A stretch of 64,000 bases of DNA from a virus (taxonomy: Duplodnaviria; Caudoviricetes), in IMG/VR virus record IMGVR_UViG_3300031912_000009, positions 1,418-65,417 of that record. One strand, written 5' to 3'. Under the pieces are notes generated by a model. The model ran no database searches. It was not told the DNA's origin and worked only from the letters and a program-made list of their open reading frames with translations. Shown here piece by piece: positions 3,973-41,155 of the stretch; within the stretch, counting starts at the first letter, position 1, and the number at the start of each line of letters is the position of its first letter. The position numbers were made by a program, and so were the translations under genes.

Positions 3973-4003
3973 GGATTTGGGTGGGGCCAGAAGGAGAGGC
4001 CTC

Positions 4004-4408: not shown

Positions 4409-4409
4409 G

Positions 4410-4661: not shown

Positions 4662-4662
4662 C

Positions 4663-15355: not shown

Positions 15356-15884
15356 TGCGTTGTGCGAGGCGATGAAGCTTTGCGCGCGCCGTGATGCGAT
15401 CTTTATCGGTCAGGGTGTAGGGCTGCATGGCGGTACGACCATGAGCCAAACGCTGATCCATGCGATCCCGTCACAGCGCTGGGAGTTTCCGGTCGCTGAA
15501 GATATGCAGATGGGTTTCTGCATTGGTATGGCACTGGAAGGCCTGTTGCCGGTCTGTATCTTCCCGCGGTGGAATTTCTTCTTATTGGCATGGAACCAAG
15601 CGATCAATCATCTCGATCGGCTGCCACTGTATTCTTACGAGGGATACAATCCGAAGGTGATTATTCGCACGGCTATTCCGTCCACGATACCTTTTAATCC
15701 TGGGCCGCAGCATGACGATGATTTCACTGAGGCCTTTAGTCTGATGACGCGCAGGATCAAGGTGGTGCGGCTAGGGAATGTAGAACAGATTATTCCGGCC
15801 TATAAGGCGGCCTTGGATGAGAACGGATCGACGTTACTTGTTGAGTATACTGATTGCTATAAAAACGAACGGGCGAAGGGATGA
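15306..15884 (+). CDS. Minimal TPP-dependent dehydrogenase E1 beta-like subunit (pyrimidine-binding domain only)
   Basis: IFIGQGV, EFPVAEDMQMGFCIGMALEG, NQAINHLD, GPQH; start may be TTG 15342. Confidence 0.85.
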   Translation: MSLTAPTLASERLSYFSALCEAMKLCARRDAIFIGQGVGLHGGTTMSQTLIHAIPSQRWEFPVAEDMQMGFCIGMALEGLLPVCIFPRWNFFLLAWNQAINHLDRLPLYSYEGYNPKVIIRTAIPSTIPFNPGPQHDDDFTEAFSLMTRRIKVVRLGNVEQIIPAYKAALDENGSTLLVEYTDCYKNERAKG

Positions 15885-16075: not shown

Positions 16076-16262
16076 GGACTTCTATCATGTCACCATCCGG
16101 TTCGGTGCTGGTATTCCGAACTCAACGCAAGGTGAGGTGATGTTGGATTTGGAAAAAGCGCTGCGGGCGCGCGGTTTGCCGGCTGAAGTCTTCAAGGATA
16201 GCATGGGCGATGACAGCAAGTTGCGTCGTGCGATGACGCCAGAACAGCGGGCGAAGCTATGA
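16068..16262 (+). CDS. Hypothetical protein
   Basis: 64 aa, coupled to the radical SAM start. Confidence 0.6.
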   Translation: MNKDFYHVTIRFGAGIPNSTQGEVMLDLEKALRARGLPAEVFKDSMGDDSKLRRAMTPEQRAKL

Positions 16263-17374
16263 GCGACATCCATGAATACCTTTTGGACGGCACGAAAGTT
16301 GGTTGGTGGCGCGATCGTGTTGAAGCGTGGCAGCGAGGAGAGAAAATTGCGCCCGTATCGATGGATGTCGCTTGGACACGGCGGTGTCAGGCAGCGTGTA
16401 CGTTTTGTTTCTCGCAAATGCAAGCCAGTGAAGGTGGCGAGATTACCAAAGAGATCGCCTTGGACTACTTGGACGATGCCGCAGAAATTGGCGTCAAGGG
16501 GATATCGCTTATCTCGGACGGCGAGAGCACTTTGGTTCCCTATTACGCTGAAAGTATTGAACACGCAGCCAAGCTTGGCATTAAGATCGGAGTTGGCTCG
16601 AACGGTATTGCGCTTACGCGCCCGGTCCTAGAGCGCATCCTTCCCCACATCTCGTATCTCCGCTTCAATTTTAGCGCGGGCGAACGCAAGCGTTACGCTG
16701 AAATTATGGGAGTGAAACAGGTATTCTTCGACCGCGTCGTGCAGAATATCAGGGACGCTATGGAGATCGTAAGGCGCGACAATTTGCAATGCACAGTCAA
16801 TATGCAGATGGTCACCATGCCGTCGATGGGCGACCAGATCCTGCCGCTGGCTAAACTTGGTCGCCAGCTTCGACCACACTATGTGATCTTTAAGCATTGT
16901 TCGGATAACGAAGATGGCTTCCTGGGGATGGATTACAGCAAGTATGACGCACTTTACGAAACATTCAAGCAAGCAGAAGCCATGGGGGATGAGGACTTAC
17001 GCATCATAGTCAAGTGGAATAGGCTGGCCGATGAAGGAAAGCGACAGTACTCGCGATGTCTTGGACCTCCATTTCAGTTACAGATTTCAGGCAATGGATT
17101 GGTGTCTACATGCGGTTTTCACTTTAATTCCAAGTACAGGAAATTTCACATGGGGTGGATCGCTGGTGAAGAGAAACAGCGATTCAAGGCAATCTGGGAA
17201 AGTGATCGATATTGGGAGATCGTTCGATACTTAGCATCGGATGAATTCGATCCGCGGTCTAGATGCGGCACGCAGTGCTTGCAGACGCATACTAATAAGT
17301 GGCTGTTCGACTACACTGAAGGTAAGCGAGACTTTCCGGCCTCGCCGGCTCCGCCGCATCTGGAGTTTCTCTAG
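16259..17374 (+). CDS. Radical SAM enzyme with SPASM/twitch-like C-terminal domain
   Basis: CQAACTFC (CX3CX2C), SDGES (GGE-like), C-terminal RCLG...STCG...RCGTQC. Confidence 0.92.
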   Translation: MSDIHEYLLDGTKVGWWRDRVEAWQRGEKIAPVSMDVAWTRRCQAACTFCFSQMQASEGGEITKEIALDYLDDAAEIGVKGISLISDGESTLVPYYAESIEHAAKLGIKIGVGSNGIALTRPVLERILPHISYLRFNFSAGERKRYAEIMGVKQVFFDRVVQNIRDAMEIVRRDNLQCTVNMQMVTMPSMGDQILPLAKLGRQLRPHYVIFKHCSDNEDGFLGMDYSKYDALYETFKQAEAMGDEDLRIIVKWNRLADEGKRQYSRCLGPPFQLQISGNGLVSTCGFHFNSKYRKFHMGWIAGEEKQRFKAIWESDRYWEIVRYLASDEFDPRSRCGTQCLQTHTNKWLFDYTEGKRDFPASPAPPHLEFL

Positions 17375-20243: not shown

Positions 20244-21158
20244 GTGCCGATAGCCCTCGCAAACATTAGGTCGGAGCTTCTCCCCGGTTTGTTTGATGTC
20301 AGAGGTTCGTATGACATGATCCCGCGTCAGTGGGACAAAGTCTTCACGACGCGCAAATCGAACCTCGCAGTTGAACGCTCAACGCAGATGGCGTTCACTG
20401 CATTGCCGTTCCTAAAAGATGAAGGTGCGGCAACTCAATTTGATAACAACGCTGGTGAACGTTTCACTTGGGCGTTTATACATATTGAGGTGAGTTTAGG
20501 TTACTCGATCACAAGAAAAGCTATAGATGATAATATTTATAAGGCGCAATTCAATCCAACGAACTTGAAGTTACAAGAAGCGTTTGCGCAATTTAAAGAA
20601 ATACAAGCAGCAAATATTCTCAATCTCGGCACGACGTATCAAGCTTCGATCATCGGTGACGGTCAAGCGTTGTTCTCGACTGCGCATCCGTTTGATGGCG
20701 GCACTTGGGCGAACACTTCGACAGTGCCGAAAAGCCTTAATGAATCGACACTTCTTGCTGATATGACGAACGTTCGTGTTCAGTTTGTGAATGAACGCGG
20801 ACTTCGTATTTTGTCGCGCGCTCGTCGTTTGATTGTTCCTCCGAATCTTGAACCTATCGCAATACGACTTACCAAGACAGAATTAAGACCGGGCGTGGCA
20901 GATAACGACGTTAATGCAATCTTAACTTTATCAGGAGGACTTCCAGAAGGATTTATTGTTCTGGACTTTCTCACGTCAAACTTTGCTTGGTTCCTCACAA
21001 CAAATATTGAGGGACTGATTCACATGCTGAGAATTCCCTACGAGTCTGATATGTGGGTGGACAACGTAACTGATAACTTACTCGTGAAAGCATATGAGAG
21101 GTATAGTTTCGGTTACAACGATCCGCGCGCAGCGTGGGGTGAATTTGCTACGAGCTAA
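20244..21158 (+). CDS. Major capsid protein (HK97 fold)
   Basis: ELLPGL...KDEGAA..FD...LGYSITRKAIDDN...GDGQALFSTAHP...RERYSFG-type pattern; AAGGAGG RBS, GTG start. Confidence 0.9.
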   Translation: MPIALANIRSELLPGLFDVRGSYDMIPRQWDKVFTTRKSNLAVERSTQMAFTALPFLKDEGAATQFDNNAGERFTWAFIHIEVSLGYSITRKAIDDNIYKAQFNPTNLKLQEAFAQFKEIQAANILNLGTTYQASIIGDGQALFSTAHPFDGGTWANTSTVPKSLNESTLLADMTNVRVQFVNERGLRILSRARRLIVPPNLEPIAIRLTKTELRPGVADNDVNAILTLSGGLPEGFIVLDFLTSNFAWFLTTNIEGLIHMLRIPYESDMWVDNVTDNLLVKAYERYSFGYNDPRAAWGEFATS

Positions 21159-21180: not shown

Positions 21181-22455
21181 ATGGCTGAGACAGTATTCCG
21201 AGGACCGGGCGTTGTTCTTGGATCGATGTTGGATAGCAGGATCGAGGCCTTCGATGGTCCGTCGATTGGTTATCAAGGCGATCTGATTGGCAATCCAATT
21301 TTTTCTCCGCAGCCTAAAGATGGTCTGTCGCCGGGAAGAATGCATGGTTGGTACAATGCATTCTATTCGGTTAGCGTTGATGCTGTACCGTCAGCGTCAT
21401 CTTCGACATCGATCGGCGTCACCGTAGGTCTTAGTGCGACGGTCGGCGGCTTGGCTACAGGTCTTGTTACTGCTGTTTCCGGTACGGCTGCGAACGTGCC
21501 GGTGTTCTGTCCTGGCGTGCCGATTATTCCATTGAACTCGCAGCAAGTGGTAACGGTTGGCGCGATCGACTTCGGCTTTATGACCGGCACTACGACGGCC
21601 AACAATTCAACGATTGTTGTGACGGACAATCGCTATTTTACGCTTGGCCAGTGGTTGTGCTTGCCGGGTTGCGGTGGCACCACCAACGTGCCATTGTTCA
21701 CGCAAGTGATGGGTTTTGGCTCGACGGCCAACGTGACGACGTTGCAAGTCGCACCGTCACCAGCCACTGGGTCGAATAATAACCCGATCGGACAGGGGAA
21801 TCTCTACAGTCAACTTGTCCCGTATGCGACACCGTTTGGGCCGGCTGCGGCCACGCCGAATGCGGCTGAGCCATATCGTCTTGCGGGTTTAGGCGCGGCT
21901 ATGGACCCGTGGGCTTGTATAGCACGCAATCTGCAATTCGTATCCGGTGCGGTGCAGACTGGCGTGATTCTGGTCAGTGGCTACGATATTTACAATCAGC
22001 CCATGACCGAGAAGATCACTCTTAACGGCAACACTGTAGTGCGTGGCCTGAAAGCTTGGAAATACATTGCGAACATTCAGACGGTTGTAGTTGGCACGAC
22101 GGCTAATGCGACGTGCAGTGTCGGCACTGACAACAGCATTGGATTTAATATCCGATCCGATCGCTGGGAATTCTCTGACGTGTTCTACAACGGTGGATTT
22201 GCAATTAACTCCACTGGGTGGACGGCCGCGGTGACTACGCCTGCCAATAGTACGTCTGGTGATGTGCGCGGCATGATCAATGCGTCTACGATCTTGGTCG
22301 GCAGTGCGTCAGGTTCGGCATCGGCTGGTGCGCCGCTTGATGGCGTGAAGCGCATCACGATTTTCCAGAACGTCCAACTGCAAAATGCTATATTCGGCAC
22401 GCCACTGAACTACACCAGTCTGATCGGTGTGGCGCAGTTTAACGGCACGTCGTAA
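21181..22455 (+). CDS. Virion structural protein (post-capsid, Thr/Gly/Ala-rich)
   Basis: MAETVFRGP start typical of the gene after the capsid; beta-rich, low charge. Confidence 0.7.
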   Translation: MAETVFRGPGVVLGSMLDSRIEAFDGPSIGYQGDLIGNPIFSPQPKDGLSPGRMHGWYNAFYSVSVDAVPSASSSTSIGVTVGLSATVGGLATGLVTAVSGTAANVPVFCPGVPIIPLNSQQVVTVGAIDFGFMTGTTTANNSTIVVTDNRYFTLGQWLCLPGCGGTTNVPLFTQVMGFGSTANVTTLQVAPSPATGSNNNPIGQGNLYSQLVPYATPFGPAAATPNAAEPYRLAGLGAAMDPWACIARNLQFVSGAVQTGVILVSGYDIYNQPMTEKITLNGNTVVRGLKAWKYIANIQTVVVGTTANATCSVGTDNSIGFNIRSDRWEFSDVFYNGGFAINSTGWTAAVTTPANSTSGDVRGMINASTILVGSASGSASAGAPLDGVKRITIFQNVQLQNAIFGTPLNYTSLIGVAQFNGTS

Positions 22456-23056: not shown

Positions 23057-23731
23057 ATGGCGCTGCCGAATGTAATTACCTTTCAAATTGGGACCGGCAA
23101 CGCAACGTATATTGTTAATGCGGCTGCGGCGACCAATGCGCCATTGGCCCTTGCCACGACCATCATGCCAAGCTTTGCGCAGTTTGGCCTTCAGCAAAGG
23201 GCGTTAGTCAGCTCGGTTGGTAACGATAGTGGCATTTTCTTTCGCATTGTCGGGCTGAACCAAGCTGGGTTCACGGTCACGGAATTCTTAGCAGGCACGA
23301 ATGCAACCTTCGCCGTATCGGCGCAGGATTATTCCAAGATCATTTCTATTCAAGGGTCATCGTCTGGTACGACGTTGATCCCGGCAGCTACTGCGAACAG
23401 TGTGTCGGTTGGTATCAGCACGACGGGCGGTACTGCCTCGACAATGTGGCAGATTATGAATTGGCATGTCTCGCCGACTAACATCGAATTGTCGGGAGTG
23501 TTACAGAGTGGCGCTGCGACATGGACTGCGCAGTACACTTACGATGATCCAAATAATCTGCCTGCGGGAGTTTTTACGCCGCAGCCATTCAACCACCCGA
23601 CCCTGCTAAATCAGACCGGATCTCTCGATGGTCCGATCAATGATCCGGTGACCGCAGTACGGTTTTTGATTGCGGCCGGAACCGGAACAATGCGCTTTAC
23701 CGTCATCCAGGCGGGAATCGGCAGCCCATGA
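23057..23731 (+). CDS. Virion structural protein (beta-rich)
   Basis: 224 aa, low charge, TWTAQYTYDDP motif. Confidence 0.7.
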   Translation: MALPNVITFQIGTGNATYIVNAAAATNAPLALATTIMPSFAQFGLQQRALVSSVGNDSGIFFRIVGLNQAGFTVTEFLAGTNATFAVSAQDYSKIISIQGSSSGTTLIPAATANSVSVGISTTGGTASTMWQIMNWHVSPTNIELSGVLQSGAATWTAQYTYDDPNNLPAGVFTPQPFNHPTLLNQTGSLDGPINDPVTAVRFLIAAGTGTMRFTVIQAGIGSP

Positions 23732-23994: not shown

Positions 23995-24588
23995 ATGATG
24001 GCTGACCCGACCGGCACCATAGGTGGAACGCACGAGAGTGATGTTTCGGTCGCTATGAAAGGCGGCTCGAAATTTACTGATCGGCTGAACCAACTGGCTG
24101 ATGTTGCCGAGAGGAATGAGAAGGCGCTTGCCGATCTCGGTCTTGGCAAAAGCCTTCAGAATGCGAAGCAGGAGGTTGATCGCAATCTGGCTAATGCGCG
24201 TCAGCAGCAAGAGAAAGCCGAATCCATTCGTAAGGAAGCGGAGGAGAAAGCCAAGGCAACAATAGATGCTGCCAACAAGCGTGCTGGCGAAGTGGCGGCA
24301 TCAGCCTTGGAAGTGAAGAAGAAGACTGAAGCAGAAGCTACCGCACTTATGAAGCAGGCTGAAGATTACGCCAAGAAAGTCCAAGGCGACATCGAGGGTA
24401 TCCGCAAGGATATGGAAGCGAGAAACGCTGCGTCTAGGATTGCGGAACAGCAGGCCAAGGATGAAGTCGGCCGCGCTAGAATAATGGCTCAGCGTGCTGG
24501 CGAATCCGCCGCAAAGGCCGATGATCTTGGCCGCAAGCTGCAAGCGAAGCTCGATCGCCTCAATGCGGTAATCCGCGAATTGACGTAG
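23995..24588 (+). CDS. Coiled-coil protein
   Basis: Ala/Glu/Lys-rich heptads over about 150 aa. Confidence 0.7.
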   Translation: MMADPTGTIGGTHESDVSVAMKGGSKFTDRLNQLADVAERNEKALADLGLGKSLQNAKQEVDRNLANARQQQEKAESIRKEAEEKAKATIDAANKRAGEVAASALEVKKKTEAEATALMKQAEDYAKKVQGDIEGIRKDMEARNAASRIAEQQAKDEVGRARIMAQRAGESAAKADDLGRKLQAKLDRLNAVIRELT

Positions 24589-24601: not shown

Positions 24602-27600
24602 ATGGCCGACCCCAACGGCAGAAACTCACCTCCCGATCTAGGCGCTTATTCGAACGCGGCACCGGCTGCCGGCGTGGCAATGGGCGCGGTTGATGCCAGC
24701 GGCAATCTGCAACCGTTATCGATTTCGCCGACTGGCGGGCTGATCGTTGCCGGGTCGTTTGCGGCTGGGTTTTCGACTACTGCGCTAGCCGTCACGACCC
24801 AAACGAACGGCACGGGCGCCTTGGTATGGCTGGCTCCGACCCAGACTTTGAATGTCGCGATTGGGGCCTCGACGGCCATAGCGACCACGACCCAAGCGGC
24901 TGTGACGGGCGCTATCGTATGGCTCGCCCCTACCCAGACGGTTACCGCGCAAGTCAGCGGATCGGTTCAGGTCAGCGGCACCGTCAGTGTTTCGGGTGCT
25001 TCGTTCTCTTCGACCGCGGTTGCCACCACTACCCAGTCCGGACAATCAGGCGTGACGGGCGCGGTGGTGTGGCTCGGGCCGGCGCAAACGATCACTGCGC
25101 AAGTGTCGGGTCAGGTTCAGGTGTCCGGCACGGTATCGGTTGCGTCCGGCACCGTTTCTGTCTCGGGGCTGACGCCGACCACGACTGCATCCGGCATGAG
25201 TGGTGTGACAGGCTTGCCGGTGTGGGTTGGCAATCCCGGTGGCAATACGACCGTCGTATCCGGAACGGTCACCGTATCCAATCCGATTCAAGTTAGCGGC
25301 CTAACGCCCACGACCACTGCCAGCGGCATGTCGGGGGTCACGGGGCTTCCGGTATGGGTCGGTAATCCTGGCGGCAATACCACGGTGGTGTCCGGCACCG
25401 TCAGCCTTGTGACGGTTAGCTCGGTCGGAACGATCGTCACCCTGCTTGGCACCGTACTGGTGTCTGAAGCGGCGGCGATCTCGATTTCATCGATTGTGGC
25501 TACGACGACGGCCAGCGGCTTAAGCGGTGTCACAGGCTTGCCGGTCTGGGTAGCCAATCCTGGCGGCAACACAACCGTGGTTTCCTTAACCGGCAGTGCG
25601 CTGGTCAGCGGGACCGTTTCGCTTGTGACGGTGTCATCGGTCGGCACGGTGGTTACGCTTCTCGGCACCATCAATGTGTCCGGTCCTGTTCAGATCAGCG
25701 GTATCACGCCGACTACTACAGGTTCGGGTTTGAGTGGTGTTGCTGGTCTTCCGGTGTGGATCGCACCCGGCGGCGGCGCGACGACGGTTGTTTCGTTGAC
25801 GGGAAGTGCGTTGGTCAGTGGCACGGTGTCGATCTCGACTGCTGTGGTTGCCACCACAACGCAAACGGCTGCGACGGGTGAATTGGTATGGCTTGCTGCC
25901 ACGCAAACGCTTGCGGTCATCAGTACTGTCGGCACGGTACTCGGCACTGTTGCGGTTAACGTTGTCGCTGGTGGCGCTGCACCCGGCACAACATTTACTG
26001 GACAGACATCAAATACGGCGCAGCTTGTCTGGTTAGCGCAAACCCAGACGTTGAGTTTGATCAGCACTATCGTGACCGTTCTGGGAACACTTCAGGTTTC
26101 CGGTACGATCCAGATTTCGTCTGTTCAGGTTACGGCCAGCACGCCAACCGCAACTGCGACCGGCATGGTGGTTTGGATGGCCAATCCACCCGGTGCGGCA
26201 AACGCACCCGGCACGACTTTTACGGGTCAGACGTCGAACACGGCCCAACTAGTATGGTTGGCGCAAACGCAGACGTTGTCACTGATCTCCACAATCGTCA
26301 CGGTTCTCAGCACCGTTAATGTCAGCGGTACGGTTCAGTTGTCCGCGGTGACGCCAACAACAACTGCATCTGGATTGTCTGGCGTTACTGGCGTTCCGGT
26401 GTGGGTGGCTAATCCAACGCAATTAAGTGTCAGCGCGCTCGGCACGACGTTCACGGGTCAAACTAGCAACACAGCGCAATTGGTGTGGTTAGCGCAAACG
26501 CAAACTCTGTCGCTGATTTCGACTATCGTCACGATCCAGAACACCGTGATCGTTTCAGGTCCGGTGCAGATCAGCGGTATAACTCCAACCACGACCGCGT
26601 CTGGATTGTCTGGTGTTACTGGACTGCCGGTGTGGATGGTCGGCGGGGCTGGCGGCGGTACGACGCTGATCAGTGTTGTCTCGACCCTAATCACGATCTT
26701 AAGCACCGTTCAGGTCAGCGGCACGGTGATCCTGTCGCAAGCGGCATTCACTACAGCATCGAGTGGATTAACCGCGACGGCAACCGGACTAATCGTTGTC
26801 GCGACCGGGACTGTTTCGGCCGTCGTCACCGGCACGGTATCGGTTTCTGGAACGGTGCCGGTTACAGGAACGATCCAGAACGTTGCGTCGATCTCGACTG
26901 TGTTAGGAACGGTCGTAATCTCTGGTCCCGTTCAAATCAGCGGGATCACACCAACTACCACTGCATCTGGCTTAAGCGGCGTTACCGGACTTCCTGTCTG
27001 GATGGTGGGTGGCGGCGGCGGCGGCACGACATTGATCAGTGTCGTTTCCACACTGATTACGATCCTAAGTACCGTTCAAGTCAGTGGCACCGTTAACCTC
27101 TCGCAAGCTGCATTTACAACGGCTAGCTCGGGCTTAACCGCAACGGCTACTGGTTTGATTGTGGTGGCTACCGGCACGGTCAGTGCGGTGGTTACTGGCA
27201 CGGTTTCGGTTTCTAACACTGTTGCAGTTGCTGCGTCTGGCACAGTTTCGCTGGTCACTATCAGTTCGGTCGGAACGGTAGTCACGTTGCTTGGTACTGT
27301 GCTGGTTAGCATCACACCGTCAGCATTGGTTAGCGGTACGCTTTCATTCTCGGGTGCTGCGTTTACGACGGCCTCGAGCGGCCTGACTGCAACAGCGACT
27401 GGATTGATTGTCGTAGCGACCGGCACGGTGACTGCCGTAGTCACTGGCGTTGTTTCTGTTTCGAACATCGCGACTGGCACCGTGTCGGTTAGCAATGTGG
27501 TTTCGGTGACAGGCACCTCGTTGAATGTGGTCGCGAGTGGCACTGTATCTTTAGTCACTGTCAGTTCAGTCGGCACCATTGTTACGTTGCTTGGCGTAGT

Positions 27601-30169
27601 CGGCGTATCGATCTCGAGCTTGGCAAATACCACGACCCAATCGGCACTCAGTACCGGCATCGGAGTGTGGCTAGCTCCGACACAGACGGTCGGTCTGGTC
27701 AGCACGATCGGCACGGTCGTTACGATCTTGAGTACCGTTCAAGTTAACGTTGTCGCGGGAGGTGCCGCACCGGGTACGACATTCACTGGACAGACTAGCA
27801 ATACCGCGCAGCTTGTTTGGCTCGCTCAGACGCAAACTCTGTCTTTGGTCAGCACCATCGTGACTGTTCTGGGAACGGTTAACGTAGCTATTGTGCCATC
27901 TGCGTTGGTGTCTGGCACGGTTTCGTTGGTAACGATTTCATCTGTTGGCACCATTGTCACTCTGCTTGGTGCGGTGAATATCAGTGGTACGGTTGCAGTC
28001 TCTCAAGCTGCATTCACTACGGCCAGCTCGGGACTTACAGCAACCGCAACCGGATTGATCGTCGTAGCAACTGGCACCGTGACTGCGGTTGTGACTGGTG
28101 TGGTGTCGGTATCGAATATCGCGACCGGGACGATATCCGTTAGCAATGTCGTCAGCGTCACTGGCACCTCACTCAATGTGGTCGCCAGCGGGACTGTGTC
28201 GCTTGTTACGATATCGTCGGTCGGCACGATCGTTACAATTCTTGGTACGCAAGTCGTGAGTGTCGTGCCTGGAGTGTCGGTGTCCGCCGTAGTGTCTGGC
28301 ACCGTCGCGATCTCACAGGCTGCCTATACGACGGCCTCATCGGGACTAACGGCCACTGCAACAGGATTGATCGTAGTGGCCACCGGCACTGTGACGGCTG
28401 TAGTGACTGGCACAGTCTCGCTGGTGACAGTATCTAGCGTTGGCACCGTCGTTACATTGCTTGGCACGGTGCTGATGTCGCTTGTTCCAGGCGGCTCGAT
28501 CTCAGCTATTGGGACCGGCACTCTTTCATTAGTCACGGTCTCATCGGTCGGCACGGTGGTGACGTTATTGGGAACGGTTAACGTTGCACCTGTTCAGCAA
28601 GCCTACACGACTGCATCAAGCGGCCTGACTGCGACTGCAACCGGATTGATAGTTGTTGCTACCGGCACTGTCACGGCTATCGTCAATAGCATCGTCAGCA
28701 CCGTTTTGGTGAACGTAGTCGCGGGCGCGGCGGGCGGCGCGCCGGCTACAGCAACCTCTCAGAGTGCCATGTCCACGGCTATGGGAGTGTGGCTCGCCCC
28801 CACACAGACCATGACCGTGACTGTTGCTACCGGCACGGTCAACGTTACCAGCACGGTGGTTATCAGTGGCACTGTCAGTTTGGTGACCATTTCGAGTGTT
28901 GGAACGATTGTTACCTTATTAGGTGCAGTTAATATTAGCGGTACTATTGCGCAGTCTCAGGCTGCCTATACGACAGCTAGCTCTGGACTTACCGCAACTG
29001 CGACCGGCATCATTGCGGTGGTGACTGGTACTGTGACGGCTACCGTAGTCGGCACGGTCAACGTCGTATCGATCACTGCGCTCAGTACCATAATCACAAT
29101 TCTCGGTACTCAGGTCGTGACGGTTGTGCCGGGATTGTCGGTTAGCGCTGTGGTCAGCGGTACGGTCACTGTCGGCAACACAATCAATGTCACCGCGCCA
29201 GGATTGACGGTCACGACCACGCAATCCGCTTTGACCACGGGTCAACCGATCTGGCTGGCTCCGACCCAGACTATGGGTGTGATATCAACCATTGTCTCAG
29301 TCCTGACAGTCGTCACAATTCTCGGCACTCAGGTCGTCACCGTTGTGCCTGGATTGTCGGTCAGCGCTCAAGTTAGCGGTACAGTTTCGATCAGCGGCGG
29401 CGGCGGCGGTATCGGCACAACGTTTACTGGACAGACCAGCAACACTGCGCAGTTGGTGTGGTTAGCGCAAACGCAAACGTTGAGCGTTCTCAGCACTGTT
29501 GTCACGTTACTTGGAACTGTCAATGTCACCATTGTCAGCAATACGACGAATGTCACCGGCACCGTTTCGCTGGTTACAGTTTCATCGGTTGGCACGATCG
29601 TCACTTTATTAGGAACGATAAATGTTAGCGGCTCGCAGGTGATTACTGGCACTGTCAGTATTAGCGGTGGCGTGACGATGGCACAGTCTGGTCAGACGCA
29701 GGTATTGCTATACTTTACGGGTACAAGCGTACAGAATAACAACCTACTCGCTAGTATCACTCTATATACTGGCAATACACGGGTTGCTGTCACGACGTTA
29801 TATGCGGTCCCGTCAGGTAAGACTCTTAGGATAATGTATATAGCCGGGCTTGCGCTGCTATCTACGGCTGGGGCTGGCGGCACGAACAATGGTTATGGGA
29901 TCGTCCAAGTTCTTTGTGCTACAGCGGCCGCAAGCATCACAAATACCGCCACTGTTGGTGTCGTCGCGCAGGCTTTTTACATCATTAACCCAATGGCTGG
30001 CGCAAGCGGGTCCACATTTTCGCCGCTCCCTCCTCAAACGTCATTTTATGTAGGGGATATCTATGCCGACGTTCCTGGCACCACTACGATTGGTATTTTC
30101 GTTAACCCGCAAGGTACTGGTGCTAACCAACCAACTATAGCAGTAGCGGTCGGTGGATATTTGTTCTGA
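24602..30169 (+). CDS. Giant Thr/Val/Ser/Gly-rich repetitive fibre-like protein (1855 aa)
   Basis: Uninterrupted ORF built from at least four shuffled repeat units, with a distinct C-terminal globular domain. Confidence 0.9.
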   Translation: MADPNGRNSPPDLGAYSNAAPAAGVAMGAVDASGNLQPLSISPTGGLIVAGSFAAGFSTTALAVTTQTNGTGALVWLAPTQTLNVAIGASTAIATTTQAAVTGAIVWLAPTQTVTAQVSGSVQVSGTVSVSGASFSSTAVATTTQSGQSGVTGAVVWLGPAQTITAQVSGQVQVSGTVSVASGTVSVSGLTPTTTASGMSGVTGLPVWVGNPGGNTTVVSGTVTVSNPIQVSGLTPTTTASGMSGVTGLPVWVGNPGGNTTVVSGTVSLVTVSSVGTIVTLLGTVLVSEAAAISISSIVATTTASGLSGVTGLPVWVANPGGNTTVVSLTGSALVSGTVSLVTVSSVGTVVTLLGTINVSGPVQISGITPTTTGSGLSGVAGLPVWIAPGGGATTVVSLTGSALVSGTVSISTAVVATTTQTAATGELVWLAATQTLAVISTVGTVLGTVAVNVVAGGAAPGTTFTGQTSNTAQLVWLAQTQTLSLISTIVTVLGTLQVSGTIQISSVQVTASTPTATATGMVVWMANPPGAANAPGTTFTGQTSNTAQLVWLAQTQTLSLISTIVTVLSTVNVSGTVQLSAVTPTTTASGLSGVTGVPVWVANPTQLSVSALGTTFTGQTSNTAQLVWLAQTQTLSLISTIVTIQNTVIVSGPVQISGITPTTTASGLSGVTGLPVWMVGGAGGGTTLISVVSTLITILSTVQVSGTVILSQAAFTTASSGLTATATGLIVVATGTVSAVVTGTVSVSGTVPVTGTIQNVASISTVLGTVVISGPVQISGITPTTTASGLSGVTGLPVWMVGGGGGGTTLISVVSTLITILSTVQVSGTVNLSQAAFTTASSGLTATATGLIVVATGTVSAVVTGTVSVSNTVAVAASGTVSLVTISSVGTVVTLLGTVLVSITPSALVSGTLSFSGAAFTTASSGLTATATGLIVVATGTVTAVVTGVVSVSNIATGTVSVSNVVSVTGTSLNVVASGTVSLVTVSSVGTIVTLLGVVGVSISSLANTTTQSALSTGIGVWLAPTQTVGLVSTIGTVVTILSTVQVNVVAGGAAPGTTFTGQTSNTAQLVWLAQTQTLSLVSTIVTVLGTVNVAIVPSALVSGTVSLVTISSVGTIVTLLGAVNISGTVAVSQAAFTTASSGLTATATGLIVVATGTVTAVVTGVVSVSNIATGTISVSNVVSVTGTSLNVVASGTVSLVTISSVGTIVTILGTQVVSVVPGVSVSAVVSGTVAISQAAYTTASSGLTATATGLIVVATGTVTAVVTGTVSLVTVSSVGTVVTLLGTVLMSLVPGGSISAIGTGTLSLVTVSSVGTVVTLLGTVNVAPVQQAYTTASSGLTATATGLIVVATGTVTAIVNSIVSTVLVNVVAGAAGGAPATATSQSAMSTAMGVWLAPTQTMTVTVATGTVNVTSTVVISGTVSLVTISSVGTIVTLLGAVNISGTIAQSQAAYTTASSGLTATATGIIAVVTGTVTATVVGTVNVVSITALSTIITILGTQVVTVVPGLSVSAVVSGTVTVGNTINVTAPGLTVTTTQSALTTGQPIWLAPTQTMGVISTIVSVLTVVTILGTQVVTVVPGLSVSAQVSGTVSISGGGGGIGTTFTGQTSNTAQLVWLAQTQTLSVLSTVVTLLGTVNVTIVSNTTNVTGTVSLVTVSSVGTIVTLLGTINVSGSQVITGTVSISGGVTMAQSGQTQVLLYFTGTSVQNNNLLASITLYTGNTRVAVTTLYAVPSGKTLRIMYIAGLALLSTAGAGGTNNGYGIVQVLCATAAASITNTATVGVVAQAFYIINPMAGASGSTFSPLPPQTSFYVGDIYADVPGTTTIGIFVNPQGTGANQPTIAVAVGGYLF

Positions 30170-30186: not shown

Positions 30187-32001
30187 ATGCAGAATTATAT
30201 GTTGGTGCCGCAACAGGGTGTCGAGCCTGCGGATGAATGGATCAGGCTTGGTGTTGAGGCGCAAGTTGCAAATCGATTTGATGATGCCGATCGGCATTAT
30301 CGTCAGGCGCTGCGGGCTGATCCGCGCAATGCCATCGCGACATTGAACTTTGCGATTTTGTATGTACAGCGAGGCAATCTGAATGAAGCATTGCTGACGA
30401 TTGAACGAGCGTTGATGTTCGATAAGGGACATGCGGTCATTGAGATGAACCACGCGCTGATGTTGTTGGATGCTGACCGTATTGATGAAGCGTTGACCGC
30501 AGGAAAACGTGCGGTAGCCATGACGAAAGATCCTAATGAGATCAATCCGAAGCTTGCGCTTGCGATGATCCTTGCGACTGCTGGTCACGCGGCAGATGCG
30601 GTTCCGCTTTATAATGAAATCCTCGATAAGCAACCAGAACATCCGTTGGCCGGACCGAATAGCTGTTTCATTCAAACCTTATGCGATTGCACGCCAGAGG
30701 ATTTATTGGCGCAGCGTAAGCGTTGGTACAGCGCTCATCGGTATAAAGGAACGGTCAAAGGCCATAACGTTCACGATCGATCATGGCCGCGGCCATTGCG
30801 AGTTGGCTATGTATCGCCTGACTTCAAGACACATTCGGCTTCGATGATTTACCGTAATGTAATTATGCATCACGATCTGAATGTTGTGGTGCCGTATTTT
30901 TATTCTACGCTTCCGGTCGATCCGAATACCGATATGTTCACCAAGCAATTTATGGATTCGGCTGGCGATCGCTGGCGAGATCTTGTCGGGAAAACCGATG
31001 ATGAAGCTGAGCGCATGATCCGCAATGATGAGATCGATATTCTGGTCGATCTTGCTGGCCACACCAATGGTAATCGTCTGACGATCTTCACACGGAAGCC
31101 GGCGCCAATCCAAATCTGCGCATGGGGCTTCGCCCATGGAACGGGGTTGCCTGAGATAGATTATTTCTTTGCCGATGAGGTATCGGTGCCGCAGAACGAG
31201 CGGCAATACTTTGCCGAGAAGATCTATGATTTGCCATGCATTCTGACTTACGAGGATGTGGGTCAAGGCGGCATTGGCAATGGTTCCGATCACATTCCGT
31301 TCCGGCAGAATGGCTACATCACCTTTGGCAGTTCCGCTCGTTATGAAAAGCTGTCCGCTGAGTGCTTGAAGGTCTTCTCCGAGATTATGAAACGGGTGCC
31401 TGACGCGGTCCTGCGGCTGAAGGATTCGGCTTATCGCCGCCCTTATGCGATCAAGCGGGTGACGGAAGCAATGCCGGACATCGACCCGAAGCGCCTGCAT
31501 TTTCTGATTGCCACTAGCCATCCGGAACACATGCAGGCTTATCGTGCGGCCGATCTCCAGCTTGATCCGTTTCCCCATGGTGGTGGCGTAGTAGCGCTAG
31601 AACAGATTTTCATGGGATTGCCGATTATCACTCTGCGAGGCCGGCAACCATCTGGTCGTAATACGGCCAGTGTTCTCCACGCCATGGGGCGCGACGAGTG
31701 GATTGCCGACACCAAGGAACAGTATGTGGAGATTGCCGTCCGGTTGGCTGACGATATTAAGACGCTGCGCGCCTGTCGTAATAGTCTGCGCGGTGAACTT
31801 TTGAACTCGCCTGTGGTAAAAGGTTATCGGGAAGCTGTGGAGGCAGCTTACCGGGATATCTGGGAGAAGTTTATCGGCAAGCGGGCGGCACCACAGGCAG
31901 AGGTGTTGCCGCCAGCGAAGAAGAAAGGACGACCGAAGAAGGAAGTGCCAGTTCCCCCACTGACTGGAAACGGCAAGGATGGCCTCGAGCGGCACCTATA
32001 A
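30187..32001 (+). CDS. TPR + SPINDLY/OGT-type glycosyltransferase (CAZy GT41-like)
   Basis: About four N-terminal TPRs; LRVGYVSPDFKTHS, IDILVDLAGHT, KPAPIQ, TGLPEIDY, ITFGS, DLQLDPFPHGGG..MGLPIITL. Confidence 0.93.
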   Translation: MQNYMLVPQQGVEPADEWIRLGVEAQVANRFDDADRHYRQALRADPRNAIATLNFAILYVQRGNLNEALLTIERALMFDKGHAVIEMNHALMLLDADRIDEALTAGKRAVAMTKDPNEINPKLALAMILATAGHAADAVPLYNEILDKQPEHPLAGPNSCFIQTLCDCTPEDLLAQRKRWYSAHRYKGTVKGHNVHDRSWPRPLRVGYVSPDFKTHSASMIYRNVIMHHDLNVVVPYFYSTLPVDPNTDMFTKQFMDSAGDRWRDLVGKTDDEAERMIRNDEIDILVDLAGHTNGNRLTIFTRKPAPIQICAWGFAHGTGLPEIDYFFADEVSVPQNERQYFAEKIYDLPCILTYEDVGQGGIGNGSDHIPFRQNGYITFGSSARYEKLSAECLKVFSEIMKRVPDAVLRLKDSAYRRPYAIKRVTEAMPDIDPKRLHFLIATSHPEHMQAYRAADLQLDPFPHGGGVVALEQIFMGLPIITLRGRQPSGRNTASVLHAMGRDEWIADTKEQYVEIAVRLADDIKTLRACRNSLRGELLNSPVVKGYREAVEAAYRDIWEKFIGKRAAPQAEVLPPAKKKGRPKKEVPVPPLTGNGKDGLERHL

Positions 32002-34928: not shown

Positions 34929-37007
34929 ATGCCGTGGGGTTCGGTTAGACTGATCCCTGGAGTTAACGTCGAGCGCACGCCAACGCTGAACGAAGCAGGC
35001 GTGTCGTCGTCGCAGCTCATCCGTTACCGCGACGGATTGATCCAGAAGTTCGGTGGCTGGTCGTCGTATCTTAGCACGACGACACTCGGTGTTCCGCGAG
35101 CGTTGCATGCTTGGGAAGACCTGAACGGTAGCACTTGGTTAGCAGTCGGCACGCCATCACAGTTAGCAATCATTCCGAATGGTACGACGATCATTGATAT
35201 CACGCCGCAAGTTTTCACATCGTCGTCAATTGCAACGTCTACGTTTATCATTAATTGGGAGATTGGTGGCCAAACAGTTCAATTTTTAGATTCAGCTATT
35301 AAGCCCAGCTATACGGCGGCTGGTCCCAGTATTGTCAGTTCGATTACTCCGAATATCGATGCGATCTATTTTAACACGCCAGTCGGTCTTCAGACTGCGG
35401 TGTTGAATGAGTACTTCAGTGGATTTTTTACGTCCGGCGTTCAAGTGCCTGGAGCCGGGACGACAGCATTTTCGGTGGGTTTAAGCATACCGCAAGGTCT
35501 TGGCAATGGGAGTGCAGCTACTTTTCTACCCCAGTTTACTACGCTTGCGGGGAGTGCCTATGTTCAGGTCAGTCGTGTTCTGGTTGGTGCGGCTCATTTA
35601 CAACAAGGGAGTGTTATCAATTTTGATATTCCGACTACTGCTAACGGTGTGACAATTTCTGGAGCTTATGTAGTCCAAACACCCACTACAGGAAGCAGCT
35701 TTTATATTTTAGCCAGCCAAATTGCCACTGGTTCAGGCACTTTTTCAATGAACAGCGGCAACGTTTCTTTAACATACTATCTTGCGGTTGGTGTTTCTCC
35801 AGGCAATGAAATGACTGGGACCAAACTGTCAGCGGCTGATTGGTCACTGGCGAATTGGGGAGAGATATTACTTGCGTGTCCAAGCAACGGCCCGATATTC
35901 CAATGGTTTGCCGGCAATGAAACCTTGACGGCTAATCCGGTTGGCACGGCACCAGCAAAAAACGGTGGCATTTTCGTTTCAAATGCGCAGCAAGTTTTGA
36001 TCTGCTGGGCTTCGTCTGGATCGCCGAACCAAACTGGAAGTGCCTTTGGGGTGATACAAAATCCGTTGCAAGTGGCGTGGTCGAATGTTGGTGACTACAC
36101 CACATTCGGCGCGTCTTCGACCAATCAAGCCGGATCATTTGTGATCCCATCTGGCAGCACTTGCCGTGGCGGCATGTCGGTGGCGTCACAGAATATCATT
36201 TGGACTGACATCGATTGTTGGGCCATGAATTATCTTGGCTTCCCGTTGGTTTACGGTTTCTCCAAGATCGGTGCAGGAGCTGGCTTGATCGCACAGCATG
36301 CTACAATGCTGTTACGAGGTGTGGTCTATTGGATGGGGCCAAGCAATTTCTTTCGTCTTACCGGCAATGGTGTCGAAGTCATTCCGTGTCCGGTCTGGGA
36401 CTTTGTATTTCAAAATATGAATACGGCGCACGTTGCTAATATTCGCGCCATGCCAAACACGCCTTTTAATGAGGTGGGTTGGTTATTTCCGTCTGCCGCG
36501 TCGTCTGGTGAATGCGACAGCTATGTCAAATTCAATGTGACTGAACAAGGCGAGCCTTGGGATTATGGCACGATTAGCCGGTCCGCCTGGATCGATCAAA
36601 GCGTGCTAGGCAATCCGATATCTGCCGATCTTAACGGTAATCTATGGGTGCAAGAAACCGGCAACAATGCTGGTGGTTCGGCGATGACGTCGTCATTCAC
36701 GACTTCATACTTTATGATCCAAGATGGTGAAGACTTTGCTTTCGTAGATTTTGTTGTGCCGGATATGATTTGGGGAACATATTCCGGACCGAAGACCGCC
36801 AACGTTCAGTTGACTTTTAACATTGTGGATTATCCAGGCGATGCGCCACGAACCTTTGGTCCGTTCACCGTAACTCAGGGACAGGAATTTATCACACCGC
36901 GGATGCGCGGTCGGCAAATGTCAATCACCGTTACGTCTAACGATAGCGGTTCGTTCTGGAGGCTCGGCCGCATCCGCTATCGGTTCGCGCAGTCGGGACG
37001 ACGCTAA
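34929..37007 (+). CDS. Tail nozzle / DNA stabilisation protein (P22 gp10-like)
   Basis: 692 aa; IPGVNVE.T...IRYRDGLIQKFGGW start and PRMRGRQ...FWRLGRIR end; position after adaptors. Confidence 0.75.
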   Translation: MPWGSVRLIPGVNVERTPTLNEAGVSSSQLIRYRDGLIQKFGGWSSYLSTTTLGVPRALHAWEDLNGSTWLAVGTPSQLAIIPNGTTIIDITPQVFTSSSIATSTFIINWEIGGQTVQFLDSAIKPSYTAAGPSIVSSITPNIDAIYFNTPVGLQTAVLNEYFSGFFTSGVQVPGAGTTAFSVGLSIPQGLGNGSAATFLPQFTTLAGSAYVQVSRVLVGAAHLQQGSVINFDIPTTANGVTISGAYVVQTPTTGSSFYILASQIATGSGTFSMNSGNVSLTYYLAVGVSPGNEMTGTKLSAADWSLANWGEILLACPSNGPIFQWFAGNETLTANPVGTAPAKNGGIFVSNAQQVLICWASSGSPNQTGSAFGVIQNPLQVAWSNVGDYTTFGASSTNQAGSFVIPSGSTCRGGMSVASQNIIWTDIDCWAMNYLGFPLVYGFSKIGAGAGLIAQHATMLLRGVVYWMGPSNFFRLTGNGVEVIPCPVWDFVFQNMNTAHVANIRAMPNTPFNEVGWLFPSAASSGECDSYVKFNVTEQGEPWDYGTISRSAWIDQSVLGNPISADLNGNLWVQETGNNAGGSAMTSSFTTSYFMIQDGEDFAFVDFVVPDMIWGTYSGPKTANVQLTFNIVDYPGDAPRTFGPFTVTQGQEFITPRMRGRQMSITVTSNDSGSFWRLGRIRYRFAQSGRR

Positions 37008-37423
37008 TGCCAGCCTCATTAGATGACATCCTGACTGCCATCAAAGGCGCGACACAGAACTTGTCGAACCTGACGATCGCATTCGGCTCACCCGGTCGTA
37101 CCTCGCAATCGTTTACGACCTCGCCAGTCGCGAGCTACTTTAATTCAATCGCTAGCGCGGCTTTTGGAACTCAACCGTTTCAGGTCGTGGCGTTTAACGC
37201 CAATCGACGCGCCATATCGTTTCATAGTTGTGATCCGATGGGGAACACGACGATGTGGCTGACGACCAATACAACTTTTGCCGGTGCTGGAGTTCCGCAA
37301 GGCATCGCCTTGGTGCCAGGAATGAACTGGGTTATTGATGCGAACAGCGGATCGAACGCAGCTTGGTTTGCGATAGCGGGGAGTGGAACAACCAACAAGC
37401 TATTAGTGCTGGAGTACGTCTGA
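37007..37423 (+). CDS. Virion structural protein
   Basis: 138 aa, low charge, follows the nozzle. Confidence 0.65.
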   Translation: MPASLDDILTAIKGATQNLSNLTIAFGSPGRTSQSFTTSPVASYFNSIASAAFGTQPFQVVAFNANRRAISFHSCDPMGNTTMWLTTNTTFAGAGVPQGIALVPGMNWVIDANSGSNAAWFAIAGSGTTNKLLVLEYV

Positions 37424-39051
37424 TGTGGAAAGTGGTGGTAGCGGCGTTGTTCCTATTCCTGACGTTGGGCCATCCGGCGAAGGCGCAAAACCTGTTCGTC
37501 CCTAATCCGCCGTGTCCGAATAACACACAGCAGATCGCCAATACGAATTGGGTAAATACTTGCGCGATCCAGACCATCTTGGCTTCGGGCGGCTATATTA
37601 ACCCGAAGAACCCCCCGTATAATGCTGCCTGCGATGGTGTGACTGATGACACAGTTGCAATCCAGAACGCTGGTAACGCCGCTATCGCGGCTGGTCTGGC
37701 ATTATTTATTCCGCCATCTACCGGCGGCTGCATCATCTCGCAGAATGCTAGCAATAACTGGTCTCTGAAATTCACATCGCCAATCGTCATTGTCGGGTTT
37801 CCCGGTTATTCAATTCTGTTTCCAAAGTCTGGGACCAGTACCAGCGTAAACATGATTTATTTTGTTGGTACTAGCGGTGGTGCGCAACGCACGATCGTAG
37901 ATGGCATCATGATCGCTAATCCTTCAACAGGGACTTACGACGGTGGCAACGCACTGTTCTTTGATACAACAACCGTTGGCAATCTGTTTCTTCGTCCGCA
38001 GATAAGCCGAAACTATTTTGGTACACCTAATAGCGGCGGCGGCTGGTCAATCCAAGCTAACAACAATACTGGCAATACTAACGGTGGCTTTGCTTATGGT
38101 AATATTTTTGAAAATCTTATTGGTGCTGGCGCCGATTTCGAATCGTCCGGCGACAGCATCCGGATGGAACACAATGTCATCACCCATATCGGATCGAACA
38201 CCAGCGTCAATCCCGGCGCACAGGTCAACCTAATTACTAATGCTGGCAATTTTCAGTATGTCGGTAACAACTGCGGTATTGATCAACGCTGCATTTATGT
38301 CGAGTGTTCGGCAACATTCGATATCAGCGGCAATGAGCTTGAGAACAATAACAACTCCATCAGTGTCTCCAATGTAAGCCTTGATGCCAATGTCTGTGCT
38401 TTGGCTGGAGGCACCGTAACCAATAACGAGATCACGGTATTAGGCGGCAGCACTAACCATCCAGTGCCGATCTATCTAGGCGGCAGTCCTACCAGCGGTA
38501 TTGTTGTCGATGGCAATCGTATCGCAACGTTTGTCGGCTACACTGCAATTCTGATTGGAGGTAACGCAAGTAATACTCATATTGGTTGCAATAATTATTT
38601 TGTGTCTGTTAGCGGTCTGTCCACCATAACTGACAATTCAACTACAACCATCTATTGCAGAGCGCATTATTATGTTGGTCATAGTGTCCACTCGGCAACT
38701 TGCGCGACCAATACAACGTGCTGGTTCTTGAACGATATTCAAACGTCAGGCGATGTTTTTGTTTACAACCGCACACCACTTGCCGGATTGTTTAAAGGGA
38801 TGCGGGTGTTTACTGGCAACGGTGCCCCCGGCGCCGCTCAGACCTACACAGTGACATTCCGCAAGAATTCAGCCAATACCGGAATAACCTGTACGATTTC
38901 TGGCAACGCTTCTAATAGTTGCAATGACACGTCGCATACAGTGACATCGTCGCAAGATGATCAATGGAACTTTTCTATCGTGACTTCTAACGGCGCAGCG
39001 GTGGCTCAAGATATTCAGTGGGTCATCGAGTTTGACCCGTACACACAGTGA
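37423..39051 (+). CDS. Tailspike-like pectin-lyase-fold protein with N-terminal signal peptide
   Basis: ATG 37423 after GGAG; MWKVVVAALFLFLTLGHPAKA-Q; IANTNWV; NPKNPPYNAACDGVTDDTVAIQNA (Pectate_lyase_3-type start); beta-helix repeats. Confidence 0.75.
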   Translation: MWKVVVAALFLFLTLGHPAKAQNLFVPNPPCPNNTQQIANTNWVNTCAIQTILASGGYINPKNPPYNAACDGVTDDTVAIQNAGNAAIAAGLALFIPPSTGGCIISQNASNNWSLKFTSPIVIVGFPGYSILFPKSGTSTSVNMIYFVGTSGGAQRTIVDGIMIANPSTGTYDGGNALFFDTTTVGNLFLRPQISRNYFGTPNSGGGWSIQANNNTGNTNGGFAYGNIFENLIGAGADFESSGDSIRMEHNVITHIGSNTSVNPGAQVNLITNAGNFQYVGNNCGIDQRCIYVECSATFDISGNELENNNNSISVSNVSLDANVCALAGGTVTNNEITVLGGSTNHPVPIYLGGSPTSGIVVDGNRIATFVGYTAILIGGNASNTHIGCNNYFVSVSGLSTITDNSTTTIYCRAHYYVGHSVHSATCATNTTCWFLNDIQTSGDVFVYNRTPLAGLFKGMRVFTGNGAPGAAQTYTVTFRKNSANTGITCTISGNASNSCNDTSHTVTSSQDDQWNFSIVTSNGAAVAQDIQWVIEFDPYTQ

Positions 39052-41154: not shown

Positions 41155-41155
41155 T

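Follow-up and report, generated by a model that had tools for sequence, protein, structure and literature searches.

In Haemophilus, the soluble cytoplasmic glycosyltransferase HMW1C, a member of glycosyltransferase family 41 (GT41), is encoded beside HMW1, a very large β-rich adhesin that is decorated at many sites. The repetitive, β-rich adhesins AIDA-I and TibA also acquire their sugars in the cytoplasm, where many serines are O-glycosylated with ADP-heptose, and their partners AAH and TibC belong to a glycosyltransferase family other than GT41. The exosporium filaments BclA and ExsFA of Bacillus combine an N-terminal anchor, a variable Thr-rich O-glycosylated stalk and a trimeric TNF/C1q-like knob. 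Among phages, mycobacteriophage-encoded glycosyltransferases reportedly modify capsid and tail-tube proteins in the cytoplasm (Freeman et al. 2023, to which PMC11256854 and PMC12363180 refer). Here we analyse a 64,000-nucleotide stretch of a virus of the Caudoviricetes (IMG/VR record IMGVR_UViG_3300031912_000009, positions 1,418 to 65,417; hereafter the window), in which a gene for a giant, nearly charge-free putative fibre is followed immediately by a GT41 glycosyltransferase gene. We consider it fairly probable that this podophage-like virus of ~65 kb builds a virion fibre that is O-glycosylated in the cytoplasm with an unusual sugar of the phage's own making.

Further systems frame the comparison. 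SPINDLY (SPY), which carries tetratricopeptide repeats (TPRs), takes extended, Ser/Thr-rich peptides into the lumen of its TPRs and modifies their Ser/Thr, and mutation of its residues H495, S496 or K665 lowers or abolishes activity (PMC9715652). Related pairs of N-glycosyltransferase (NGT) and adhesin exist beside HMW1C and HMW1. NGT biology has been described (PMC10507012). Protein gp76 of phage phiCbK is a low-complexity, β/coil-rich protein of 2799 aa encoded in the structural module, which grew by repeat expansion, went undetected by tryptic proteomics and is a candidate head filament (PMC3556154).

Composition, modules and knob of the fibre

The fibre is laid out as a short N-terminal anchor, a shaft of T/V/S/G/A and a C-terminal jelly-roll knob:

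24602-30169, + strand: fibre gene (P0001), an open frame of 1855 aa, with homologues P0002-P0004 and a syntenic orthologue in contig L093
24602-24766, + strand: N-terminal segment of ~55 aa with D3, R7, D12 and D31, the only charged part before the knob; putative virion anchor
24695-29779, + strand: shaft, residues 32-1726 (1695 aa), with 556 Ser/Thr and five module types
29684-30166, + strand: C-terminal knob of ~155-160 aa, a predicted β jelly roll

The open frame is composed of 19.3% Thr, 17.6% Val, 12.2% Gly, 12.0% Ser and 10.2% Ala, and its ionisable residues are few enough to be listed: Asp at 3, 12, 31, 1819 and 1823, Glu at 289 and 427, Lys at 1740, and Arg at 7, 1727 and 1743, with a single Cys at 1772 and no His. 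The sequence-only reading had counted just two Glu between D31 and R1727, and E289 and E427 are indeed the sole charges in that interval. Within the shaft, T/V/S/G/A make up 71-73% of residues and D/E/K/R/H only 0.4%, with a grand average of hydropathy (GRAVY) of +0.94, compared with 5.8-35.5% D/E/K/R and a GRAVY of -0.94 to +0.28 in the other 24 window proteins. This depletion of charge is far beyond chance, and the low-charge trait is kept in the homologues. Shaft hydrophobicity exceeds 1.6 in 13% of 19-aa windows, and we found no hydrophobic N-terminal signal peptide in the fibre.

The shaft is assembled from modules that recur in no fixed register. The GTVSLVT module is present in ten copies (nine exact and one GTLSLVT variant), the TTASSGLTATATG and TTT[AG]SG..PVW modules in seven each, TTFTGQTSNTAQLVWLAQTQTLS in five and VWLAPTQT in four, which matches the copy numbers first reported for this gene, and the order of module types, CCACACDDCDCBCBABADABABAABABDA, is non-periodic as had also been claimed. 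All 20 of the 20 Trp residues fall within a [VI]W[LVMI] motif. Hydrophobic periodicity was absent from the shaft up to lag 40. A collagen-like stalk was considered and rejected, as no (G-X-X) run goes beyond 3 triplets and Gly has an autocorrelation of 0.02 at lag 3.

Copies of a module share 88-93% amino-acid identity vs 69-73% nucleotide identity, and where residues are identical between copies the same codon is used in a fraction of 0.30-0.40, compared with 0.28-0.36 expected from random synonymous choice. Since the protein is nearly fixed and the synonymous codons are randomised, this is a real gene under strong purifying constraint. Substitutions within modules are almost all V/I/L/M swaps, and the Ser/Thr/Gly positions are fixed. 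The randomised codons further imply that the repeats are old, or that they are actively de-homogenised in DNA while the amino acids are held almost constant. A true relative of this phage, the syntenic 68-kb contig L093, shows how the shaft as a whole changes: neighbouring genes are 44-87% identical, but its fibre (3122-8383) is only 35-40% identical to P0001, carries ten D-type TTFTGQTS.TAQLVWLAQTQTL modules and zero A, B or C modules, and is wholly devoid of D, E, K, R and H across ~1,556 consecutive residues. From this comparison, the fibre evolves faster than its neighbours through turnover of modules that are singly near-fixed.

An AlphaFold2 (AF2) model of the knob has nine strands (pLDDT 64, pTM 0.63). 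In a VIA structure search it matched the TNF-family ligands 4-1BBL and APRIL as well as ExsFA at Z 8-9 with a root-mean-square deviation of 3.3-3.5 Å over 126-137 residues. A Z of this size counts against a firm assignment, since models that match nothing clearly often reach it (typically Z 7-8). C1q was matched as well (Z 8-9), the exosporium proteins scored 8.2 (ExsFA), 7.1 (BclA) and 6.8 (F-BclA), and phage receptor-binding knobs and viral jelly-roll capsid proteins also appeared at Z 7-9. A Foldseek search of the model against the PDB gave no match at E <= 1e-3, and a search of the ESM Atlas returned unnamed viral clusters only. We therefore treat the TNF/C1q-type jelly roll, a fold class typical of trimers, as a lead from modelling. 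The shaft is less tractable, and this too speaks against a confident structural picture: an AF2 monomer model of residues 980-1324, for which 32 tiled segments from paralogues and orthologues were aligned, gave a pLDDT of 39. This result speaks neither for nor against the intertwined trimer proposed from the sequence alone, and the same holds for a single-chain β-solenoid or β-helix.

A profile of the knob, built from the last 155 residues and run on 1.84 billion proteins, yielded 137 representatives, all metagenomic, with the domain C-terminal in every one; the IMG/VR scan with the same profile gave one locus. Members come mostly from soil and groundwater; those of the protein library measure 55 to 1215 aa, and metagenome loci encode some of up to 2625 aa. 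The short ones (~210 aa) join an ordinarily charged N-terminal piece to the knob with zero shaft, and in longer ones a T/V/S/G/A shaft, which is 0-3% charged and again has the [VI]W motif, is inserted between the two. P0001 is long yet not the longest, the L113 member reaching 2,625 aa. In that protein (L113:1983-9857) the charged residues occur in adjacent pairs spaced ~115-240 aa apart, mostly ~130-155 aa, which suggests a regular super-repeat, unlike the non-periodic P0001.

P0001 had no match in Pfam (E <= 1) or PHROG (E <= 0.01), and nine or ten other members gave no match or sub-threshold ones only; likewise, a PDB sequence search with the fibre and tblastn of the fibre, the knob and a short family member against 50,697 GenBank phage records found nothing. 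A family absent from Pfam, PHROGs and deposited phage genomes is invisible to current annotation, and with no Lys or Arg in its shaft, the fibre would be missed by tryptic virion proteomics.

At least three types of fibre N-terminus occur. The P0001 type is common to the syntenic L093, and a 'YQRVKLV' type is found in most other members, on other phage backbones; variation of the N-terminus with the backbone fits the role of a virion anchor. This bears on whether the protein belongs to the virion at all. Its extreme hydrophobicity (GRAVY +0.94) might instead suit a cytoplasmic or released aggregate former, such as an amyloid-like matrix or a late decoy, but we find this hardly credible in view of the anchor-shaft-knob layout, a length range from zero shaft to 2,600 aa, the position of the gene in structural operons and an N-terminus that changes with the phage.

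The fibre architecture with a C-terminal domain, proposed from the letters of the gene, gains support from the predicted TNF/C1q-type jelly roll. The receptor-binding role proposed for that domain is doubtful, as the knob is the conserved part and the shaft and N-terminus vary, a pattern that a nucleus for folding or trimerisation fits as well as receptor binding does. The proposed analogy to mucins or serine-rich-repeat adhesins is poor: the shaft has 31% V+I+L and 3.2% Pro, its modules are not in tandem, it lacks a signal peptide, and the sole glycosyltransferase recognised in the window is the GT41 enzyme. The shaft looks like a β-structured element rather than a disordered P/T/S brush.

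The adjacent glycosyltransferase and the sugar genes

The gene that follows the fibre gene is preceded by GGAG 8 nt before its ATG:

30187-32001, + strand: SPINDLY-like TPR and GT41 glycosyltransferase of 604 aa, starting 17 nt after the fibre stop codon

Its product matches PF13844 at 140.4 bits (cut-off 25) and TPR_19, TPR_2 and TPR_16 above their cut-offs. Arabidopsis SPY is matched over the full length at E 4e-81, followed by Thermobaculum and human OGT, and the HMW1C-type NGTs (3q3e, 8j30) reach an E of only 1e-4. H216, S217 and K388 of the phage enzyme align to H495, S496 and K665 of SPY and are invariant in six phage orthologues. From the match to SPY, the intact catalytic residues and the changed donor contacts described below, the enzyme is probably active in O-glycosylation and its donor is probably not GDP-fucose. 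N-glycosylation was rejected, because the enzyme is distant from the NGTs and the fibre shows no excess of N-X-S/T sequons, with 16 among its 60 Asn vs 18.2 on average after shuffling. Homologues of the GT41 protein were not detected by tblastn in the 50,697 GenBank phage records at E 1e-10.

The pairing of the two genes extends well beyond this virus. All six shaft-bearing homologues whose contig extends downstream (P0002, P0003, P0018, P0011, P0072 and P0024) have a GT41 gene at most 3 genes downstream of the fibre, and around P0118, P0123 and P0105, which are short and charged, we detected none (0/3). For the reverse direction we considered metagenome contigs with a GT41 of at least 43% identity and at least 1.5 kb of upstream sequence, and found a low-charge TVSGA-rich open reading frame (ORF) or a knob upstream in 20 of 22; one further fibre, in L102, was missed by the filter and counted by eye, making 21/22. 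The same search around distant GT41 proteins (29-36% identity) gave 0/12 (Fisher p = 1.7e-7). The fibre-GT41 link is thus no local accident; it is a conserved and statistically strong pairing across unrelated phages, so that the core of the earlier interpretation, a fibre dependent on glycosylation, is strengthened through gene linkage, and its mucin analogy, receptor-binding knob and intertwined trimer are not. One 79-kb contig (Ga0209006_10000137) encodes two GT41 paralogues, L116 and L127, which are 54% and 43% identical to the enzyme of the window and of which only one adjoins a fibre.

Several further genes of the window encode a candidate supply of sugar:

11808-13181, + strand: fusion of a nucleotidyltransferase (HldE domain II-like) and a PfkB kinase
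13178-13696, + strand: GmhA-like sedoheptulose-7-phosphate isomerase (TIGR00441, E 2e-25, below the equivalog cut-off)
14756-15355, + strand: small thiamine pyrophosphate (TPP)-dependent E1 alpha
15306-15884, + strand: small TPP-dependent E1 beta
16259-17374, + strand: radical S-adenosylmethionine (SAM)/SPASM enzyme (Pfam)

Five accessory genes are kept in the cassette loci L002-L007 (radical SAM 55-59%, nucleotidyltransferase 37-47% and GT41 51-57% identical), E1 alpha/beta are 40-48% identical in L002, L003, L006 and L007, and the loci also hold a kinase of the PfkB or AAA_33 type; the nucleotidyltransferase part is kept in all of them. The major capsid protein (MCP), portal, TerL and adaptors have no BLASTP match in L002-L007, and retention of the cassette alongside such unmatched structural genes points to a mobile module swapped between unrelated phages. 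The radical-SAM gene of L004 (L004:7118-9493) contains an intein, with Pfam matches to Intein_splicing and SPASM in 791 aa.

By sequence, the GmhA- and HldE-like genes are related to the ADP-heptose pathway, and ADP-heptose as a product is not implied: the GmhA-like match is 89.5 bits vs an equivalog cut-off of 209, rfaE domain II scores 107.6 (cut-off 181.5) and domain I 49.5 (cut-off 345), and the domain order is reversed relative to HldE. Full-length homologues of the radical-SAM enzyme, 47-56% identical, occur in 80 bacterial loci (L013-L092) that include Pelagibacter, Nisaea, Azospirillum, Pseudoalteromonas, Sulfurimonas, Myxococcales and Elusimicrobia. They are accompanied by nucleotidyltransferase/PfkB genes in 52/80, E1 alpha-like genes in 40/80 and GmhA in 31/80, and by a fibre or a GT41 in 0/80. 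The cluster of Nisaea denitrificans (L038:3134-14353) adds two DegT aminotransferases, a methyltransferase and a PMT_2 transferase, and the nucleotidyltransferase-PfkB fusion of the window has the same domain order as in Nisaea. These shared genes suggest a captured bacterial pathway for an unusual nucleotide sugar, probably derived from heptose. Our literature search found no paper linking radical SAM, heptose, GmhA and transketolase, and the bacterial gene set is probably an apparently undescribed pathway for a novel higher-carbon sugar.

The radical-SAM/SPASM enzyme raises the question of whether the fibre polypeptide is itself modified, with residues epimerised or the invariant Trp cross-linked in the manner of ribosomally synthesised and post-translationally modified peptides (RiPPs), so that the key modification would not be a sugar. 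The radical-SAM gene is the best conserved of the cassette and in L003-L007 lies upstream of the fibre gene with only the nucleotidyltransferase gene between them, SPASM enzymes often act on peptides, and the modules are conserved like recognition sequences. Set against this are the bacterial homologues, found in 80 fibre-free loci beside GmhA, nucleotidyltransferase/kinase, E1 and DegT genes; furthermore, Pfam revealed no RiPP recognition element (RRE) or PqqD-like domain, and matches to peptide maturases were weak and generic. Because the homologues sit in bacterial sugar clusters, we regard a peptide-modifying role as very unlikely.

In the mechanism we propose, the fibre would be made in the cytoplasm, because it has no signal peptide, together with the adjacent GT41, which is probably co-transcribed with it and would act as a soluble O-glycosyltransferase of the SPINDLY/OGT type. 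The short TPR domain of this enzyme may hold extended Ser/Thr-rich segments while sugars are attached to some of the shaft's 556 Ser/Thr, the donor being an unusual nucleotide sugar supplied by the GmhA-like isomerase, the kinase/nucleotidyltransferase, the radical-SAM enzyme and the TPP-dependent E1 alpha/beta. The unglycosylated chain is plausibly insoluble, judging from its GRAVY of +0.94, and a coat of glycans could replace charge as the solubilising principle of the hydrophobic shaft. The C-terminal knob probably nucleates trimerisation, and the N-terminal 55 residues would dock on the virion. The product would be a long, neutral filament without tryptic sites, suited to first contact with the host envelope, and the fibre and its modification genes may travel as one mobile module between unrelated phages. 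We speculate that neutrality itself is selected, either because the filament would adhere less to charged minerals or polymers in soils and groundwater or because it would pass through a charged host capsule.

Several observations weigh against this picture. We infer glycosylation of the fibre from gene linkage, and the identity of the sugar, the trimer, the presence in virions and the attachment site are likewise inferred. The donor loop of the phage enzyme reads FPHGGGVV vs FPYAGTTTT in SPY, with Y744 replaced by His and T748 by Val; only ~4-5 TPRs are present, and the positions of the SPY TPR Asn-ladder are kept in 2/5. GmhA is present in some cassette loci and absent from several, and for this reason 'heptose' may not hold for all members. 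In addition, the GT41 paralogue L127 has no fibre nearby, and L005, a 19.7-kb viral fragment that is 24% complete, contains radical-SAM, nucleotidyltransferase and fibre genes without GT41.

Some of these points would also be expected if the fibre were not the substrate, that is, if the shaft buried its V/I/L, exposed its Ser/Thr and needed no sugar, and the GT41 and sugar genes merely hitch-hiked and modified something else, such as the envelope or cytoplasmic proteins of the host or further proteins of the virion. The fibre without GT41 in L005 and the reliance on linkage for fibre glycosylation both leave room for this explanation, as do the bacterial homologues of the sugar genes, which serve envelope glycans, and the nearby proteins p424 and p224, which are also charge-poor. 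The pairing nevertheless spans unrelated backbones and tracks the TVSGA shaft rather than the knob, and a hitch-hiker is unlikely to stay within 0-3 genes of one structural gene in 20/22 contigs. We therefore consider a non-substrate fibre unlikely and prefer the glycosylated fibre.

Genome setting and attachment of the fibre

The source record is a 65,417-bp IMG/VR virus estimated to be 96% complete, nearly all of which is covered by the window, and all large genes between 491 and 52,447 are on the + strand:

491-2275, + strand: TerL
4938-7388, + strand: portal
20244-21158, + strand: Mu gpT-like/phrog_371 major head protein (MCP)
23995-24588, + strand: 197-aa protein, 35.5% charged, directly upstream of the fibre gene and 44.5% identical in the syntenic L093
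31979-32674, 33541-34257 and 34254-34928, + strand: three SU10-type adaptor paralogues (PF24175), a candidate fibre docking site
34929-37007, + strand: phrog_3287 virion protein
37363-39051, + strand: tail protein
40564-44812: a GNAT gene followed by the gene for a 1222-aa protein with an S74 chaperone domain

None of the window proteins was recognisable as a tail tube, sheath or tape measure, so the virus looks podophage-like. Its closest TerL among GenBank phages is only 40% identical, and we detected no tRNA genes in the window that would hint at a host. The relatives of TerL and the closest bacterial sugar genes are a weak pointer to the Alphaproteobacteria.

The fibre gene is part of a structural operon, between the MCP and the SU10-type adaptors. 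In SU10 itself, the adaptor bears a dock for trimeric long tail fibres (PMC9509320), and the fibre gene adjoins the adaptor gene. Because SU10-type adaptors carry a fibre dock and the SU10 fibre gene adjoins the adaptor gene, we favour by this analogy an adaptor-docked tail fibre, at about even confidence. The similarity of the adaptors to SU10 is seen only at the profile level, and BLASTP found no similarity between the N-termini of the fibre and SU10 gp12.

The gene also belongs to the half of the late operon that encodes the head, with the MCP gene and four to six small genes ahead of it and the adaptor genes behind it, a position that would suit a head fibre or filament projecting from the capsid like the phiCbK gp76 candidate or the phi29 head fibres. 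The cassette of L004 directly follows the portal gene, and phiCbK gp76 is also a giant low-complexity protein encoded near head genes (PMC3556154). Such a head fibre is in our view the less probable arrangement, given the presence of adaptors whose family docks trimeric long tail fibres and the L003 cassette, which follows genes for a tailspike-like β-helix and a laminin-G protein. Since the module moves between genomes, gene position is in any case weak evidence for the attachment site.

Other genes around the fibre have features of their own. The protein encoded directly upstream has a composition that suggests a coiled coil, and it may be a fibre chaperone, an assembly factor or a connector, a role proposed solely by inference. 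Two proteins encoded between the MCP and fibre genes (window 21181-22455 and 23057-23731) are charge-poor, with 8.3% and 5.8% D/E/K/R, and are kept in L093 at 71% and 55% identity; the 424-aa charge-poor protein has 9 N-X-S/T sequons vs 5.3 expected, which is not significant (p ~0.08). All three PF24175 paralogues are kept in L093 (47-83%), whereas SU10 has one, and they could form a hetero-oligomeric adaptor ring or provide separate docks for different fibres. A GNAT acetyltransferase gene is embedded in the tail module (window 40564-44812), upstream of the gene for the 1222-aa protein, which joins a match to a DNA-ejection-protein PHROG and an S74 intramolecular chaperone domain; the S74 domain occupies residues 299-347, well away from the C-terminal end.

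Comparison with known systems

If our interpretation is correct, it would assign a GT41-type system of protein glycosylation to a bacteriophage virion for the first time, and the fibre would be a natural substrate for a clade of SPINDLY/OGT homologues of bacterial type, about whose functions little is known. The fibre is an extreme of protein chemistry, with ~1,700 residues nearly without ionisable side chains and 1,556 wholly without them in L093, and the solubility and folding of a charge-free chain thereby become directly testable. The locus also exposes an uncharacterised sugar pathway of radical SAM, E1 alpha/beta and nucleotidyltransferase/kinase, with or without GmhA, that is widespread in bacteria. 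More tentatively, charge-free 'glyco-fibres' of up to 2,600 aa may form a new class of appendage that owes its solubility and surface chemistry wholly to dense O-glycosylation by GT41 with a heptose-derived sugar, the product of a radical-SAM/TPP-enzyme pathway taken over from the synthesis of bacterial envelope glycans. They would be encoded by a six-gene module that moves between unrelated soil and groundwater phages, giving each a neutral filament with a glycan coat, possibly mimicking or engaging host surface glycans; we hold this broader view to be possible rather than probable.

Like the HMW1/HMW1C pair, the locus places a GT41 gene beside that of a giant β-rich protein, here its putative substrate. 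HMW1C differs in being an N-glycosyltransferase without TPRs that acts on N-X-S/T, whereas the phage enzyme has TPRs and is SPY-like, and HMW1 is a secreted bacterial adhesin rather than a phage protein. With SPINDLY and OGT the enzyme shares the arrangement of TPRs and catalytic region, alignment over the full length and the H-S and Lys residues. It departs from them in its donor, which in place of GDP-fucose or UDP-GlcNAc is probably a sugar made by the phage, and in apparently serving a single dedicated substrate, a structural protein, where theirs are regulatory and number in the hundreds.

The fibre itself recalls BclA and ExsFA in its anchor-stalk-knob layout, and both are among the structural matches of its knob, but in BclA a collagen triple helix of G-X-X repeats forms the stalk, the phage shaft has no such Gly periodicity, and the glycosyltransferases and sugars differ. 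phiCbK gp76, to which tblastn among the GenBank phages showed no sequence relation, is Gly/Ala/Pro-rich, has a lectin domain, is not charge-free and has no glycosylation cassette described. The GmhA-like and HldE-like enzymes of the window are a likeness to the AIDA-I and TibA systems, whose substrates are, in contrast, secreted β-helices with normal charge content.

In the mycobacteriophages, other glycosyltransferase families modify short extensions at the C-termini of the major capsid and tail-tube proteins, and neither a dedicated giant fibre nor a radical-SAM/TPP sugar pathway is known to take part. Having no described or cultured relative, the fibre system brings together elements of known kinds, namely phage fibres, phage-encoded glycosylation of virions and pairs of GT41 and adhesin.

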